Below are positions 1 to 40,981 of a DNA stretch of 40,981 nt, piece after piece. Every line of letters begins with the position of its first letter. Within the stretch, counting starts at the first letter, position 1. A program made the position numbers and the translations under genes. This DNA comes from Escherichia phage J8-65. Below the pieces are notes generated by a model, which had not been told where the DNA came from, ran no database searches, and was given only the letters and a program-made list of their open reading frames with translations. The stretch lies in the sequence record NC_025445.1; one strand, written 5' to 3'.

Positions 1-259
1 TCGACCCGAAGGAGCGCCTGCGCCCCCGTACGCCTGTGCGCGTGCGCGTGCATGACGTGTGCGCATTATGCGTGCGTGCCTGCGCGTGCGGTATTGCTCG
101 CGTGCGTGCGGTATAGTTCGCGCGTGCCCGTTTCCATTGTCGCGGTGTGGTGCTGTGTGGTGCTGCGTCCTGCTGCTGCGTGCTGCGCCACTGCTACCAC
201 TGGACGCGCCTGCGCTGGGCTGCTGGTGCTGGGCGGTGCTGCTGTGTGTATCGGTGGCT
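1..259. repeat. left direct terminal repeat (DTR)
   Basis: bases 1-259 are identical to 40723-40981; GT-rich, A-poor; typical T7-supergroup terminal redundancy. Confidence 0.85.
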
Positions 260-715: not shown

Positions 716-792
716 TCATCTCGCCGGACGACACAGCGTTAACGTGTCGGACGGTGTAAGACGGTAACACTGTTCTTTAACAATCTGGTGTG

Positions 793-821
793 TTGACAAG
801 GCAAGCTCACTATGCTGTAAT
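793..821 (+). promoter_or_regulatory. sigma70-like early promoter (TTGACA-N17-TGTAAT)
   Basis: consensus -35 TTGACA 793-798, 17-nt spacer, -10 TGTAAT 816-821. Confidence 0.6.
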
Positions 822-928
822 GCTTCCAGTCAGTCAGCAAGCTAAACAGTCATGGATAAAGACGTTAAAACCCACGTAGGCGAACTGATACGGTTTAATC
901 ATCTCAGAATGGGCGCTGATTAAAACGG

Positions 929-5903: not shown

Positions 5904-6337
5904 AGCCTAAGTATAAAGTCGGGGATGAAATCGTAGGCGACGAAGGCACTGGCACCCGGTCGGGTAAGCTGAGTATCATCGCTTGGGTTAACCCTGACCG
6001 CCGAGCGTGGGAGCGTAGCGGGGAGACTCGTTACATCGTGAGCTGGATTGGTGAGCGCCTGAATGCGCAGCCGGATATCAGCCACTACAAATCTGACTGG
6101 CTGGAAGAGAACACCAGTCTGGTCAGCACGCCAGCCGAGAAGCGCGGTCGGTTCATGTGCTTGGTCGAAGGCAGCAACGCGCCGCCGAAGGTTGAGCACA
6201 TCACTGAGCGCGAGGCGCGTGAAGAAGCTGAACGTCTGGCAGAGCGGTGCGGAGGTACTGTCCGTGTGCTGCAAGTTGTGGCCAGCGTGAAGATGAAGAA
6301 GAAGATTCTGTACACACCGGACTGGGATAACGAATGA
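5897..6337 (+). CDS. hypothetical protein (146 aa)
   Basis: ATG start overlapping upstream stop. Confidence 0.55.
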   Translation: MVKPKYKVGDEIVGDEGTGTRSGKLSIIAWVNPDRRAWERSGETRYIVSWIGERLNAQPDISHYKSDWLEENTSLVSTPAEKRGRFMCLVEGSNAPPKVEHITEREAREEAERLAERCGGTVRVLQVVASVKMKKKILYTPDWDNE

Positions 6338-7047
6338 GAAAGTCAGTGAGCAATGATGAGTGGCCGGAGCTGGCGAGGCGTCTGCCGATAGGACAAAAGC
6401 GTCGGACGTTTCACGCTTGCTCACGCTCATTCAGTAAGACCAACTTCGAGTATGGCCGGAACAGCGAAGGCGTGTGGTGCAAGTGCCATCGCTGCGGCCA
6501 TGCTGATTTCAAACCCCTCAACCATGCACCGTATGTACCGCCAGCCAAAGAGCAGGTGAAGATACCGGGCGACGTTGTTCCGCTTATCGAAGTGATAGCG
6601 AAGCAGCCCGGACTGCTACTGCCAGCGTTGGAGAAGTATGAGCTGCTGCCACACCTGAGCGTGCTGACTGCCAGCCCAACGTACGGGCGTATCTACTTGC
6701 CGGACAACTCGGCAAGCTACTGTGGTCTGGACTACACCGGGCGGCAGTTCATTCCGTGGCGCTCGCCACACAACCATCTAATGGCAGTGACAGTAAGTAA
6801 TCACGACGACGATGAGTTCAAAGGGATATGGATTTACGACAGCGCATCAGCATATCTCGACCACGTTCGTCGTGGTGACAGAGTGGATGGCAATGCAGCG
6901 TTCGTAGCCAATGCCGACGATGCCACCGTACGCGCTCTGGTTAGCGTTGTGCTGGCCAATCGTTATGAAGTGATATCATTGCAGCACCGACAGAGCGACA
7001 GGCTCAGGCGTGAGCTGAGAGTGTGTGGCAGGGTGCGAACAATATAG
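6334..7047 (+). CDS. putative primase-like zinc-ribbon protein (237 aa)
   Basis: C-x16-C-x-C-x2-C cluster (CSRSF...WCKCHRCGH); sits directly upstream of helicase as in T7-like primase-helicase modules; no clear TOPRIM seen. Confidence 0.45.
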   Translation: MRKSVSNDEWPELARRLPIGQKRRTFHACSRSFSKTNFEYGRNSEGVWCKCHRCGHADFKPLNHAPYVPPAKEQVKIPGDVVPLIEVIAKQPGLLLPALEKYELLPHLSVLTASPTYGRIYLPDNSASYCGLDYTGRQFIPWRSPHNHLMAVTVSNHDDDEFKGIWIYDSASAYLDHVRRGDRVDGNAAFVANADDATVRALVSVVLANRYEVISLQHRQSDRLRRELRVCGRVRTI

Positions 7048-7056
7048 GAGGGTAAT

Positions 7057-8322
7057 GTGTTAGACAAACTGTTGCTCTCTGTCATGCGTGAGCGAGGGAA
7101 GTATAACTCCCTGCGCCATGCCATTCCAGAGGACACTATGAGTCAGACCACAGGCTACATGCTGCGTGCGTATGGCTCATACTTCGAGGCGTTCCCGGAT
7201 TCAGATTACGTGGATATGGAAACGCTAGGCACACACGTCCGGCTCAAGACTGGGAGTACACCGGAGCAGATGGCTGCGTTCGAATCGCTATGCCAGCAGC
7301 TCAAGGAATACCAGCCGACGAAGCAGCAGACCGAAGGCATCATCGACCAGTTAGTCGAGCTGGATACAGCAGGCAAGGTTAACCTCCTTGCGCAGAGGTA
7401 CGACAATGGCGATGAGATTGATTTCATCTATGAGCTGGGCCGCCTTGCAGAAGGCGCACGCCGCAGTCGAGGGCAGTCATCTGTCACTGATTACGTTGAC
7501 GATGATGTGGTTGATATTATCAATCGGACGGATGATGACCACGGTTTCAAGTTCGGTCTCATGTGTTTGCAGGACAGCGTTAGGGTACTTCTCCCCGGTG
7601 ACTCCGTTGCAATCGGCGCTCGACCCGACAGTGGCAAGACTTCCTTCATCGCGTTTAACCTTACGAGAATGGCGGCGACAGCAGCGAAGCTGTATCCGGG
7701 CCGACCAATCCTATGGTTCAACAACGAAGGGCAGGGCATCAACATCATCCCGCGCATCTACCAAGCGGCGCTCGGCTGTACGCTCCCGGAGTTAAAGGCA
7801 CTGGGTGCAGACAGGAAGAAGTTGCATGAGAAGTACGCGAAGGCGTTGAATGCTCCGGCCAACATCATACGTGTGAAGGACATGCACGGTGCAACGTTGG
7901 CCAAAGCGGAGCAGGTGATTGAAGCAATGAATCCCTGCATCGTGGTGTGGGATATGCTGGCAAACTTCAAGTTGTCTGTGGCTGACGCTAACAGCAACAA
8001 GGCCAGCCAAGTCGAGCAGCTCTGGCAGGAGGTACGTGAGCTGGCGGTACGTCATGACTTCGTATCGCTGGCTACGGTTCAGGTATCCGCAGACGGTGCC
8101 GACGATATGTTCCCCGCGCTAGACGCACTCAAGGATTCCAAGACTGGTATCCAAGGTGCGACCGATGTGATTGTCATGCTGGGTTCCGTTGACGACCCGG
8201 CGCTGGCAGCGAGGCGCGGCGTGAGCACTCCGAAGAACAAGCGGCAGATAGCTGGGCGTCCGTCCAACGTCCGTTCGCAGGTTCACTTCTATGCTGATAA
8301 ATGTCAATTCGAGGATATGTGA
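7057..8322 (+). CDS. DnaB-like replicative DNA helicase (421 aa)
   Basis: GTG start 5 nt after AGGAGG; Walker A GARPDSGKTS; position matches T7 gp4 helicase domain. Confidence 0.75.
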   Translation: MLDKLLLSVMRERGKYNSLRHAIPEDTMSQTTGYMLRAYGSYFEAFPDSDYVDMETLGTHVRLKTGSTPEQMAAFESLCQQLKEYQPTKQQTEGIIDQLVELDTAGKVNLLAQRYDNGDEIDFIYELGRLAEGARRSRGQSSVTDYVDDDVVDIINRTDDDHGFKFGLMCLQDSVRVLLPGDSVAIGARPDSGKTSFIAFNLTRMAATAAKLYPGRPILWFNNEGQGINIIPRIYQAALGCTLPELKALGADRKKLHEKYAKALNAPANIIRVKDMHGATLAKAEQVIEAMNPCIVVWDMLANFKLSVADANSNKASQVEQLWQEVRELAVRHDFVSLATVQVSADGADDMFPALDALKDSKTGIQGATDVIVMLGSVDDPALAARRGVSTPKNKRQIAGRPSNVRSQVHFYADKCQFEDM

Positions 8323-8675
8323 TGAGCAAGATAAAGGTAGGCGACCGCGTTCGTAACTGTGACACCAAGAGCGTACACTTCGGCGCGACTGGTACTGTGG
8401 TGGATATCGACAGCAAGTGCATCAGCATCCGGCGCGACGATGGCTCGCGTGGTTCCGGTATCTATGGTTCGTGGACTGCGCGGCCAGAGTGCTGGGAGCT
8501 ACTGGATGAAGTAGCCAAGGTGCCGGAGCCGACGAGCACTGACGAAGACTGGAGCTATGCAGAAGCTGAGCGTCTGTATCAGGCGGCGTGTGATGCCATG
8601 TCGCGGTACAATCAGTACATCGAGCGTAAGCCTACGACTAACTACCTGTCCGGCTCAGTGCCGAGCAAGTGGTGA
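8322..8675 (+). CDS. hypothetical protein (118 aa)
   Basis: ATG 8322 with GAGGA RBS, 1-nt overlap with helicase stop. Confidence 0.55.
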   Translation: MSKIKVGDRVRNCDTKSVHFGATGTVVDIDSKCISIRRDDGSRGSGIYGSWTARPECWELLDEVAKVPEPTSTDEDWSYAEAERLYQAACDAMSRYNQYIERKPTTNYLSGSVPSKW

Positions 8676-8839
8676 AAGGGCGCAGCTATCGTCGTTGCTC
8701 TTGCGGCGGCAGCCTGCTAACTGAGCAGGTCAAGGGCAAGGCCACTGGCAAAGTGCTGGTGATTTATGAGTGTGAAAAGTGTGGAGCGAAACAGTATGGA
8801 AGAACGCACGTATCGAGCGGCACCCTTAAACCAACGTGA
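8672..8839 (+). CDS. putative zinc-ribbon protein (55 aa, GTG start)
   Basis: GTGA overlap with upstream stop; CSC-x20-CEKC motif; overlaps next ORF in another frame. Confidence 0.3.
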   Translation: MKGRSYRRCSCGGSLLTEQVKGKATGKVLVIYECEKCGAKQYGRTHVSSGTLKPT

Positions 8840-8987
8840 GCAGGAACTCATCCGGGCACAGTACCGGAAGGGCGACGCATTCCGTGGTGCCGAGGCATTG
8901 GGTGAACGCTTCAACGTAGCACCCGAAGATATCTACGCCGTGGTTAACTTCACCTATACCAAGGGGAGAAAGAAAAGTGATAAGTGA
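8796..8987 (+). CDS. small HTH-like protein (63 aa)
   Basis: ATG 8796; LNQREQELIRAQYRKGDAFRGAEALGERFNVAPEDIYAVV resembles a sigma region 4 / LuxR-type HTH. Confidence 0.4.
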   Translation: MEERTYRAAPLNQREQELIRAQYRKGDAFRGAEALGERFNVAPEDIYAVVNFTYTKGRKKSDK

Positions 8988-9660
8988 TAACGACTTCAAG
9001 CGCGTGTGGGCAGAGGAAATCTGTCGGCTGTTGCAGGGCGAAGAGTTGAGCTTCGTTGTTGCAGGGGGTGGGGCACGAGACACTGCGCTTGGCGTAGACC
9101 CGAAGGACTTTGATATCGTGGTGTTCGGTTGGGGCGGTGACATGCAGCGCGTTGCTCGCCGACTGGACTGGCTGGATTCCCGGCTGGAAGACTGGGCTGC
9201 GGAGCATGAGCTAGACTACGAGTACATGCCGAGTTACCACGATGCAGAAGAGGGCGGCGACTTTGGCTCCCGACTGTACGGCGTGTACAAAGTTGGCCCG
9301 GTCGATATCATCATCAGCAAGTGCGGCTGCTGGTCACAGGTGCTGAACGAGTTCGACTTCAACCTGAACCAGTTCTACTTCCCGTCCAGTATCCCGCGCT
9401 ACTCCGGCCAGTACAGCCGTGACCCCGGCGACTTCATGGCGTACCCGTATGAGCCGAAGCTGACTGCCGAGGATGTGCAGTGGTATCCGGCGCTGGCCAG
9501 TCTGGTTGAAAGCTATGACGACCTTCTGACCCTGCGTGTGTGCCGACCGGATGCGAGCATGAGTCGTCTGGCTTACATGTTAGAGAAGCACGAGAAGCTG
9601 CTGCCCCGCATTCAGGAGTACGTGAATCGTATGCCTGACCATTTGGGTGGCACAGCATAG
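8977..9660 (+). CDS. class II CCA-adding-enzyme-like nucleotidyltransferase, short form (227 aa)
   Basis: GTG start after GGGGAG; VVAGGGARDTALGVDPKDFDIVVFG matches the GGxxRD...DxD head-domain signature of CCA-adding/poly(A) polymerase family; downstream DFNLN motif. Confidence 0.6.
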   Translation: MISDNDFKRVWAEEICRLLQGEELSFVVAGGGARDTALGVDPKDFDIVVFGWGGDMQRVARRLDWLDSRLEDWAAEHELDYEYMPSYHDAEEGGDFGSRLYGVYKVGPVDIIISKCGCWSQVLNEFDFNLNQFYFPSSIPRYSGQYSRDPGDFMAYPYEPKLTAEDVQWYPALASLVESYDDLLTLRVCRPDASMSRLAYMLEKHEKLLPRIQEYVNRMPDHLGGTA

Positions 9661-40722: not shown

Positions 40723-40981
40723 TCGACCCGAAGGAGCGCCTGCGCCCCCGTACGCCTGTGCGCGTGCGCGTGCATGACGTGTGCGCATTATGCGTGCGTG
40801 CCTGCGCGTGCGGTATTGCTCGCGTGCGTGCGGTATAGTTCGCGCGTGCCCGTTTCCATTGTCGCGGTGTGGTGCTGTGTGGTGCTGCGTCCTGCTGCTG
40901 CGTGCTGCGCCACTGCTACCACTGGACGCGCCTGCGCTGGGCTGCTGGTGCTGGGCGGTGCTGCTGTGTGTATCGGTGGCT
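40723..40981. repeat. right direct terminal repeat (DTR)
   Basis: identical to 1-259; window ends at last repeat base so the true DTR could be longer. Confidence 0.85.

Follow-up and report, generated by a model that had tools for sequence, protein, structure and literature searches.

Two small overlapping open reading frames (ORFs) precede a nucleotidyltransferase (NTase) gene in Escherichia phage J8-65, and the question raised by this locus is whether both of them encode proteins and, if they do, whether the two proteins act together. A sequence-only reading of the region had proposed a small zinc-ribbon protein and a helix-turn-helix (HTH) protein. The whole stretch of DNA that was analysed, here called the window, is 40,981 bases long and is the complete genome of a phiKMV-like podovirus in the genus Bonnellvirus (Autographiviridae); it has direct terminal repeats of 259 bp. 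The same contig is present in IMG/VR as UViG 2706795724. Sequence identity at this locus is 97.9% with Escherichia phage smaasur and 78-84% with other Bonnellvirus phages. A survey of coliphages from Danish wastewater describes bonnellviruses as differing "primarily in small hypothetical genes" (PMC7552041). The local genes all lie on the + strand and run from the primase and helicase through a 117-aa gene, the zinc-ribbon ORF (zinc ORF), the HTH gene and the NTase into the DNA polymerase (Table 1). The product of the 117-aa gene has a weak SH3-like N-terminus, with a match to Pfam SH3_12 that falls below threshold, and the gene has a pN/pS of 0.30.

Table 1. Coordinates of genes and sequence features around the overlapping ORFs of phage J8-65, numbered from the first base of the window.
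Feature	Position	Strand	Evidence or remark
Primase	6334-7047	+	
DnaB-like helicase	7057-8322	+	
117-aa gene, upstream of zinc ORF	8322-8675	+	Hypothetical protein in the annotation of all relatives
Zinc ORF, 56 aa (55 aa from GTG 8672)	8669-8839	+	Four-Cys motif, selection, AF2 model
GGAG Shine-Dalgarno of HTH gene	8783-8786	+	9 nt before ATG 8796
63-aa HTH ORF	8796-8987	+	phrog_31596, AF2 model, profile matches
44-nt overlap, zinc ORF/HTH ORF	8796-8839	+	Predicted zinc-protein tail and HTH N-terminus encoded by the same DNA
Nucleotidyltransferase (NTase)	8977-9660	+	phrog_1614, E = 7e-45; weak PolyA_pol/PcnB head-domain matches
DNA polymerase	from 9647	+	

The anatomy of the two ORFs was largely as first described. 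The zinc frame, given earlier as 55 aa from a GTG at 8672, is open throughout, but its start is more likely to be the in-frame GTG at 8669, which gives a protein of 56 aa, because Lidtsur has ATG at the position equivalent to 8669 and GTA at the position equivalent to 8672. The GTG at 8672 does lie in a GTGA overlap with the stop codon of the upstream gene (TGA 8673-8675). All four cysteines of the proposed CSC-x20-CEKC signature are present (C10-S-C12 and C35-E-K-C38), but the spacer between the two pairs is 22 residues rather than 20. The 63-aa ORF is also where it had been placed, in the +1 frame relative to the zinc frame, and shares 44 nt with it. A longer, 73-aa reading of this ORF from an ATG at 8766 is open in some relatives only, and the PHROG match spans the 63-aa part alone, not the extension.

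Both overlapping frames are genuine protein-coding genes under purifying selection. The homologous region was taken from 14 related phage records, and the alignment was free of gaps. In the segment that belongs to the zinc ORF only (8672-8795), the zinc frame had a pS of 0.216 and a pN of 0.045, for a pN/pS of 0.21, compared with pN/pS values of 1.0 and 1.4 in the other two frames, which contained 33 and 40 stops across the 14 sequences. Third codon positions accounted for 19 of the 31 variable sites in this segment (binomial p = 0.0013). In the segment that belongs to the HTH gene only (8838-8976), pN/pS was 0.17 in the HTH frame, with no stops in the 14 sequences, and 1.3 and 3.6 in the other two frames, with 12 and 55 stops. 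Neighbouring genes had pN/pS values of 0.09-0.30, indicating that both small ORFs behave like ordinary genes. The comparison of synonymous sites and conservation that had been suggested for both frames thus came out in favor of coding, and stops interrupting the Cys-motif frame in relatives, which the sequence-only reading had named as grounds for abandoning it, were absent from all 14 sequences. Of the 14 fetched Bonnellvirus records, 13 have an intact zinc ORF, as does L016, and C10, C12, C35 and C38 were invariant in all 15 Bonnellvirus copies (the window, the 13 records and L016).

The zinc frame has also been kept over a greater evolutionary distance. Pantoea phage LIMEzero (genus Waewaevirus) encodes diverged homologues of both proteins next to each other (tblastn; 45% and 58% identity), as does L019, a LIMEzero-like contig identified in a scan of IMG/VR. 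In both of these the zinc ORF is intact though unannotated, with a start codon that runs into the stop of the gene before it (GTGA in LIMEzero and ATGA in L019). Between the window and these two sequences pS was 0.77-0.84, which is saturated, and pN was 0.37-0.41. Such a combination of saturated synonymous sites and lower pN indicates that the zinc reading frame has long been kept by selection. It is therefore scarcely credible that the zinc frame is open by chance in an intergenic spacer, or that the two ORFs are what is left of a homing endonuclease in decay. Most gene callers do skip the zinc ORF, and the HTH resembles the DNA-binding modules of homing endonucleases, but both frames are under purifying selection, the zinc ORF is retained while synonymous sites saturate, its Cys residues are invariant, and no HNH, GIY-YIG or other nuclease motif was found in either ORF. 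A chance ORF in particular is rejected on the selection seen at the codon level.

We infer a small C4 zinc ribbon for the first protein, which may bind nucleic acid or another protein. Its AF2 model, built from a shallow alignment, has predicted strands at residues 2-9, 15-22, 29-35 and 41-45, places the Cys pairs in two turns and has a mean pLDDT of 74, with a predicted disordered tail at residues 48-56 where pLDDT is below 50. The top Foldseek matches in the PDB were the zinc ribbons of Pol I A12.2, RNase P Rpp21, eL42 and NrdR, with probabilities of 0.98-0.99 and TM scores of 0.55-0.60 but weak E-values of 0.2-0.4, which is not surprising for a domain of about 45 residues. A viral structure library returned the Lidtsur orthologue first, followed by assorted small phage zinc ribbons. 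No match above threshold was found in Pfam, PHROG, NCBIfam or PDB sequences, and none of the PDB sequences matched below E = 1. Scores fell short of the family thresholds for RNHCP (PF12647; 20.3 bits against 24), Ribosomal_L44 (PF00935; 16.5 against 25) and NCBIfam L44e (14.2 against 87). A paralogue of the primase zinc-binding domain was also considered (BLASTP E = 0.085) and was rejected when hhalign of the two alignments gave a probability of 2% over 14 columns.

Like A12.2/TFIIS/Rpb9, Rpp21, eL42/L44e and the N-terminus of NrdR, the zinc protein carries a pair of Cys knuckles separated by about 22 residues, which in the model occupy beta-hairpin turns. Unlike in those ribbons, the first knuckle is CxC and not CxxC, and the protein stands alone as a 56-aa phage product whose tail is predicted to be disordered, outside any polymerase, ribosome or repressor. 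The knuckles themselves differ within the family, being CxC...CxxC in Bonnellvirus, CxxC...CxC in L019 and CxxC...CxxD in LIMEzero. With Asp in place of the fourth Cys in LIMEzero, zinc binding may not be universal among these proteins.

The second protein is well supported as an HTH protein. Its AF2 model (pLDDT 83) is a three-helix bundle with a helix-turn-helix pair, formed by helices at residues 13-22, 32-39 and 43-50 and followed by a basic C-terminal tail. The protein belongs to phrog_31596 (E = 1.5e-41), a deposited family with no functional name or fold assignment. It had no Pfam match at E <= 1 itself, and among the homologous stretches of its relatives the Pfam families HTH_38, HTH_7, CENP-B_N and HTH_23 were above or near threshold, with MRP-L20 also labelled. 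When the family profile was compared with 1.84 billion representatives, only two close clusters were found, and beyond these the matches were to repeat modules of NUMOD4/HNH and GIY-YIG homing endonucleases and of multi-HTH proteins (E = 3e-8 to 5e-4). The HTH protein shares with the homing-endonuclease modules the signature L-x-x-x-E/Q-x-x-x-I-R-x-x-Y-x-x-G...L-A-x-K/R-F/Y-N-V-x-x-x-x-I/V-x-x-V/I-V. Unlike homing endonucleases, the protein consists of one module, neither ORF encodes a nuclease domain, and the gene is at a fixed syntenic position and under purifying selection, not a mobile insertion. The HTH protein is the conserved one of the two small proteins and is most likely a stand-alone, sequence-specific DNA binder resembling the tandem modules of homing endonucleases.

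The HTH part of the earlier label stood. Its description as sigma region 4 / LuxR-like proved marginal, and the homing-endonuclease modules match far better. Against the PDB, the best profile matches were RpoH region 4 (E = 0.0039), the PAI subdomain of Sleeping Beauty (0.011) and CENP-B (0.027), so that the sigma-like resemblance is one of several that are equally loose. As in sigma-70 region 4, the protein has a three-helix HTH with a preceding helix, and the profile aligns with RpoH 228-269 (region 4.2). Unlike sigma factors and LuxR-GerE proteins, it is a 63-aa stand-alone protein that lacks the remaining sigma regions as well as any receiver or ligand domain, and Sigma70_r4, Sigma70_r4_2 and GerE are absent among the Pfam families of its close relatives too. 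Foldseek returned generic HTH proteins weakly, with matches to sigma-4 and NarL at E >= 1.8 and TM 0.39-0.47. In view of the weak Foldseek E-values for both models, the two fold assignments rest on motif, model and probability.

The two genes do not have the same distribution. In the Escherichia phage LF82-23, a bonnellvirus, the zinc ORF is cleanly absent: the upstream gene ends in TGG TAA, which is followed by AGGAGAACACG and then the ATG that starts the HTH gene. The zinc ORF is likewise missing from the IMG/VR contig L018 and from the metagenomic lineage P0004/L022, in both of which the HTH gene directly abuts or overlaps the upstream gene. The zinc ORF thus appears to be an optional accessory that was lost or never gained in these three lineages. 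A search of 5.8 billion proteins returned two matches to it; in the phage collection it occurs in 19 records, all Bonnellvirus or LIMEzero, and in IMG/VR at four loci, all from Bonnellvirus/LIMEzero lineages. Homologues of the HTH protein were found in 20 phage records and those of the NTase in 136.

These absences and counts indicate that the pair is not obligate and that neither protein is a general regulator of the NTase. The earlier proposal of a regulatory pair, taken here as an obligate two-part regulator of the downstream NTase, has in its favor the position of the genes, which are adjacent, overlapping, immediately upstream of the NTase and coupled to it; the order of HTH then NTase is also kept in every lineage seen. 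This proposal was not supported and is now distinctly improbable, as LF82-23, L018 and L022 all retain HTH and NTase without the zinc ORF, the NTase is found in far more records than either small gene, and LIMEzero and L019 have one extra small gene between HTH and NTase. No operator-like element was found between HTH and NTase, no sigma-70-type promoter or terminator was found between or around the genes, and there was no repeated phage-promoter motif near the locus.

A different possibility is an accessory role for the zinc ribbon in host takeover or anti-defence, as with the small zinc-ribbon proteins of restriction alleviation; the protein would then have no functional link to the HTH, and its gene would simply have been inserted between two coupled genes. 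The gene is present in some phages and absent from others, whether of one genus or of different genera; members of the family occur in Bonnellvirus and Waewaevirus-like phages alone, and the protein is small and encoded in the early/middle region. Matches in the viral structure library include a "restriction alleviation protein", an MqsA-type ribbon and NrdR-like ribbons. These matches are to generic zinc ribbons, however, at E >= 0.06, and no sequence match links the protein to any named family, so we regard such a role as unlikely.

Signals for translation are arranged differently in the two small genes. The zinc ORF has no convincing Shine-Dalgarno (SD) sequence in any lineage, and its start is always on the preceding stop (GTGGTGA in the window). 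A start codon placed on the preceding stop is the classic arrangement for coupling by termination and reinitiation. For the HTH gene an independent ATG and SD are present, both conserved, and the GGAG lies within the zinc codons TGT GGA GCG (Cys38-Gly39-Ala40) of the second knuckle. The GGAG is also found in LIMEzero, and LF82-23, which has no zinc ORF, carries a stronger SD, AGGAG, 6 nt before the HTH ATG. Further downstream, the HTH gene and the NTase share 11 nt where one stops and the other starts, and the NTase has an SD of its own, GGGGAG, at 8963-8968, 8 nt upstream.

The tail of the zinc protein that the overlap encodes, together with the few residues that precede it, is the least conserved part of that protein, while the HTH residues Y6, R7, P10 and L11 encoded by the same DNA are invariant across genera. 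This difference suggests that the overlap is constrained mainly by the HTH frame. The exact 44-nt overlap is also found in LIMEzero (L015 2268-2311) and L019 (2495-2538), and the conservation of both its length and its +1 relation in three diverged lineages counts in favor of a programmed +1 (or -2) frameshift producing a fusion of zinc ribbon and HTH. Such a fusion is nevertheless extremely unlikely. No slippery motif or stimulatory structure is shared by the overlaps of Bonnellvirus, LIMEzero and L019, and folding gave a z-score of 0.37; initiation of the HTH gene has signals of its own, and the gene stands alone in the three lineages without the zinc ORF; and the overprinted zinc tail is variable and predicted to be disordered.

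Taken together, the locus is best explained as two separate small proteins encoded in a part of the DNA-metabolism operon where genes are tightly packed and translationally coupled, an explanation to which we assign a probability of roughly 65%. According to this explanation, the zinc ORF would be translated by termination-reinitiation from the 117-aa gene, and ribosomes finishing the zinc ORF would pass through the HTH initiation site. The HTH gene would then be read in two ways, one dependent on coupling and the other on the SD that precedes it. Within the overlap, the zinc frame would specify a disordered tail that varies freely, so that sharing the DNA would cost little. The zinc protein itself would be an accessory C4 ribbon slotted between two coupled genes, and the HTH protein would most likely bind phage or host DNA in the middle phase of infection. 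Seen this way, the locus is an instance of ordinary tight phage gene packing, and the present evidence opens no new biological question. It would also provide a clean example of a small accessory gene placed between translationally coupled genes, with a disordered tail overprinted on the start of its neighbour.

One feature of the zinc ORF does not follow directly from this explanation. The pS of the zinc-only segment was below that of all 562 overlapping 41-codon windows of five neighbouring genes (minimum 0.217, 5th percentile 0.258, median 0.39). The low value may be due to chance, as the segment contains only 41 codons, and it could also result from recombination or from the embedded SD, but it hints at a further constraint beyond the two-protein model. 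RNAalifold predicted three hairpins in the zinc-only segment with one compensatory pair, for which shuffling and slide controls were weak. Folding in and around the overlap and the zinc ORF was no more stable than that of shuffled sequence (z = 0.37, 0.70 and 0.12), and a search of the region against Rfam gave no match. An RNA element in the zinc ORF or overlap was not supported in view of these null z-scores, the Rfam result and the weak RNAalifold controls.

The same observations bear on whether the zinc protein could act on RNA. In phage Mu, com encodes a small C4 zinc protein, and the gene overlaps the start of the next gene, mom. The layout in J8-65 resembles that of com-mom, and the zinc ribbon could by analogy bind mRNA and activate translation of the overlapping HTH gene. 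The predicted hairpins and the unusual scarcity of synonymous variation within the zinc ORF count in favor of this role. It is nevertheless highly improbable, given that the region folds no better than shuffled sequence and has no Rfam counterpart, that the zinc protein has no match to the Pfam Com family at E <= 1 or to any PDB sequence below E = 1, and that in three lineages the HTH gene functions in the absence of the zinc ORF. We consider it very unlikely, too, that zinc ribbon and HTH are the two halves of a split transcription or translation factor, acting either by Com-like RNA tuning of the HTH or as an appropriator resembling sigma region 4 that redirects host RNA polymerase. If the first form were true, the zinc protein would bind RNA from the ORF that encodes it, which is conserved and constrained at synonymous sites, and so tune translation of the HTH gene. 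If the second were true, the two proteins would assemble and redirect host RNA polymerase in a phiKMV-like phage.

The zinc ORF has already been deposited as a hypothetical protein in three relatives, ROV85 (gp43, WXX18593.1), Kc261 (QQM15412.1) and Lidtsur (YP_009821622.1), and most sister genomes leave it unannotated. These deposited orthologues are 87-89% identical to the window protein, and none has a functional name or fold assignment. Those papers on Bonnellvirus and LIMEzero that were searchable mention neither ORF. The present analysis, useful chiefly for annotation, adds a conserved 56-aa zinc-ribbon gene that is absent from most Bonnellvirus records, and provides the first fold-level labels for two "hypothetical" phage proteins, as a predicted zinc ribbon and a predicted HTH module of the homing-endonuclease type. 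The earlier remark that only the longer, out-of-frame ORF was included in the ORF track has its parallel in the databases, where most related records likewise annotate just the 63-aa ORF. The reverse is seen in Kc261 and in the RefSeq record of Lidtsur, in which the zinc ORF is annotated and the HTH gene is omitted, which shows that gene callers retain just one member of the overlapping pair.

Synonymous diversity is lowest across the segment read only as the zinc ORF, the 56-aa frame encoding a predicted four-Cys zinc ribbon. Its pS of 0.216 was the lowest in the neighbourhood: across 562 neighbouring 41-codon windows the median was 0.39, and no window fell below 0.217. Three hairpins were proposed here by RNAalifold, with one compensatory pair, and their stability did not exceed that of shuffled sequence.

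Annotation of the overlapping pair differs among related phages. In Kc261 and the RefSeq record of Lidtsur, the zinc ORF is annotated and the well-conserved 63-aa helix-turn-helix (HTH) gene, homologous to 8796-8987, is not. The opposite choice was made in ten other records, and only ROV85 has both annotated. The zinc ORF is itself absent from three lineages, LF82-23 and those of two related contigs (L018 and L022). The junction in LF82-23 looks like a clean deletion of the zinc ORF; a stronger AGGAG Shine-Dalgarno (SD) remains for the HTH gene, and the old GTG start is now in frame with it. The LIMEzero lineage has an additional gene of 63-67 aa between the HTH gene and the nucleotidyltransferase, which is absent in Bonnellvirus.

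Features of the window and related records
Feature	Record	Coordinates
Direct terminal repeats	window	1-259; 40723-40981
GTTGACA...TATGCTGTAATGC, two copies	window	792-823; 928-959
Primase	window	6334-7047
Proposed hairpins	window	8663-8700; 8712-8730; 8743-8761
Lowest-pS segment	window	8672-8794
Zinc ORF absent	LF82-23 (L012)	969-990
Zinc ORF absent	L018	2088-2677
Zinc ORF absent	L022	2622-3186
Additional gene	LIMEzero (L015)	2449-2640
Additional gene	LIMEzero-like contig (L019)	2649-2852

The separate 237-aa primase contains a conserved HxC...CxxC zinc site (H27, C29, C51, C54) and has no Pfam domain on record. A relationship between this protein and the zinc ORF, raised by weak BLASTP similarity, was not confirmed by hhalign.

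Start codons in the mechanical ORF list disagree with the relatives' annotations at 8301/8322 and 9647/9671. Relatives start the upstream 117-aa gene at ATG 8322 rather than 8301, and the DNA polymerase about 10 nt past the nucleotidyltransferase stop rather than at GTG 9647.

Exact 259-bp direct terminal repeats identify the window as a phage genome that is linear and complete, and IMGVR_UViG_2706795724_000001 is the same contig. Near the left end, the two GTTGACA...TATGCTGTAATGC copies, 136 nt apart, resemble strong early promoters of the sigma-70 type, which host RNA polymerase would recognise.
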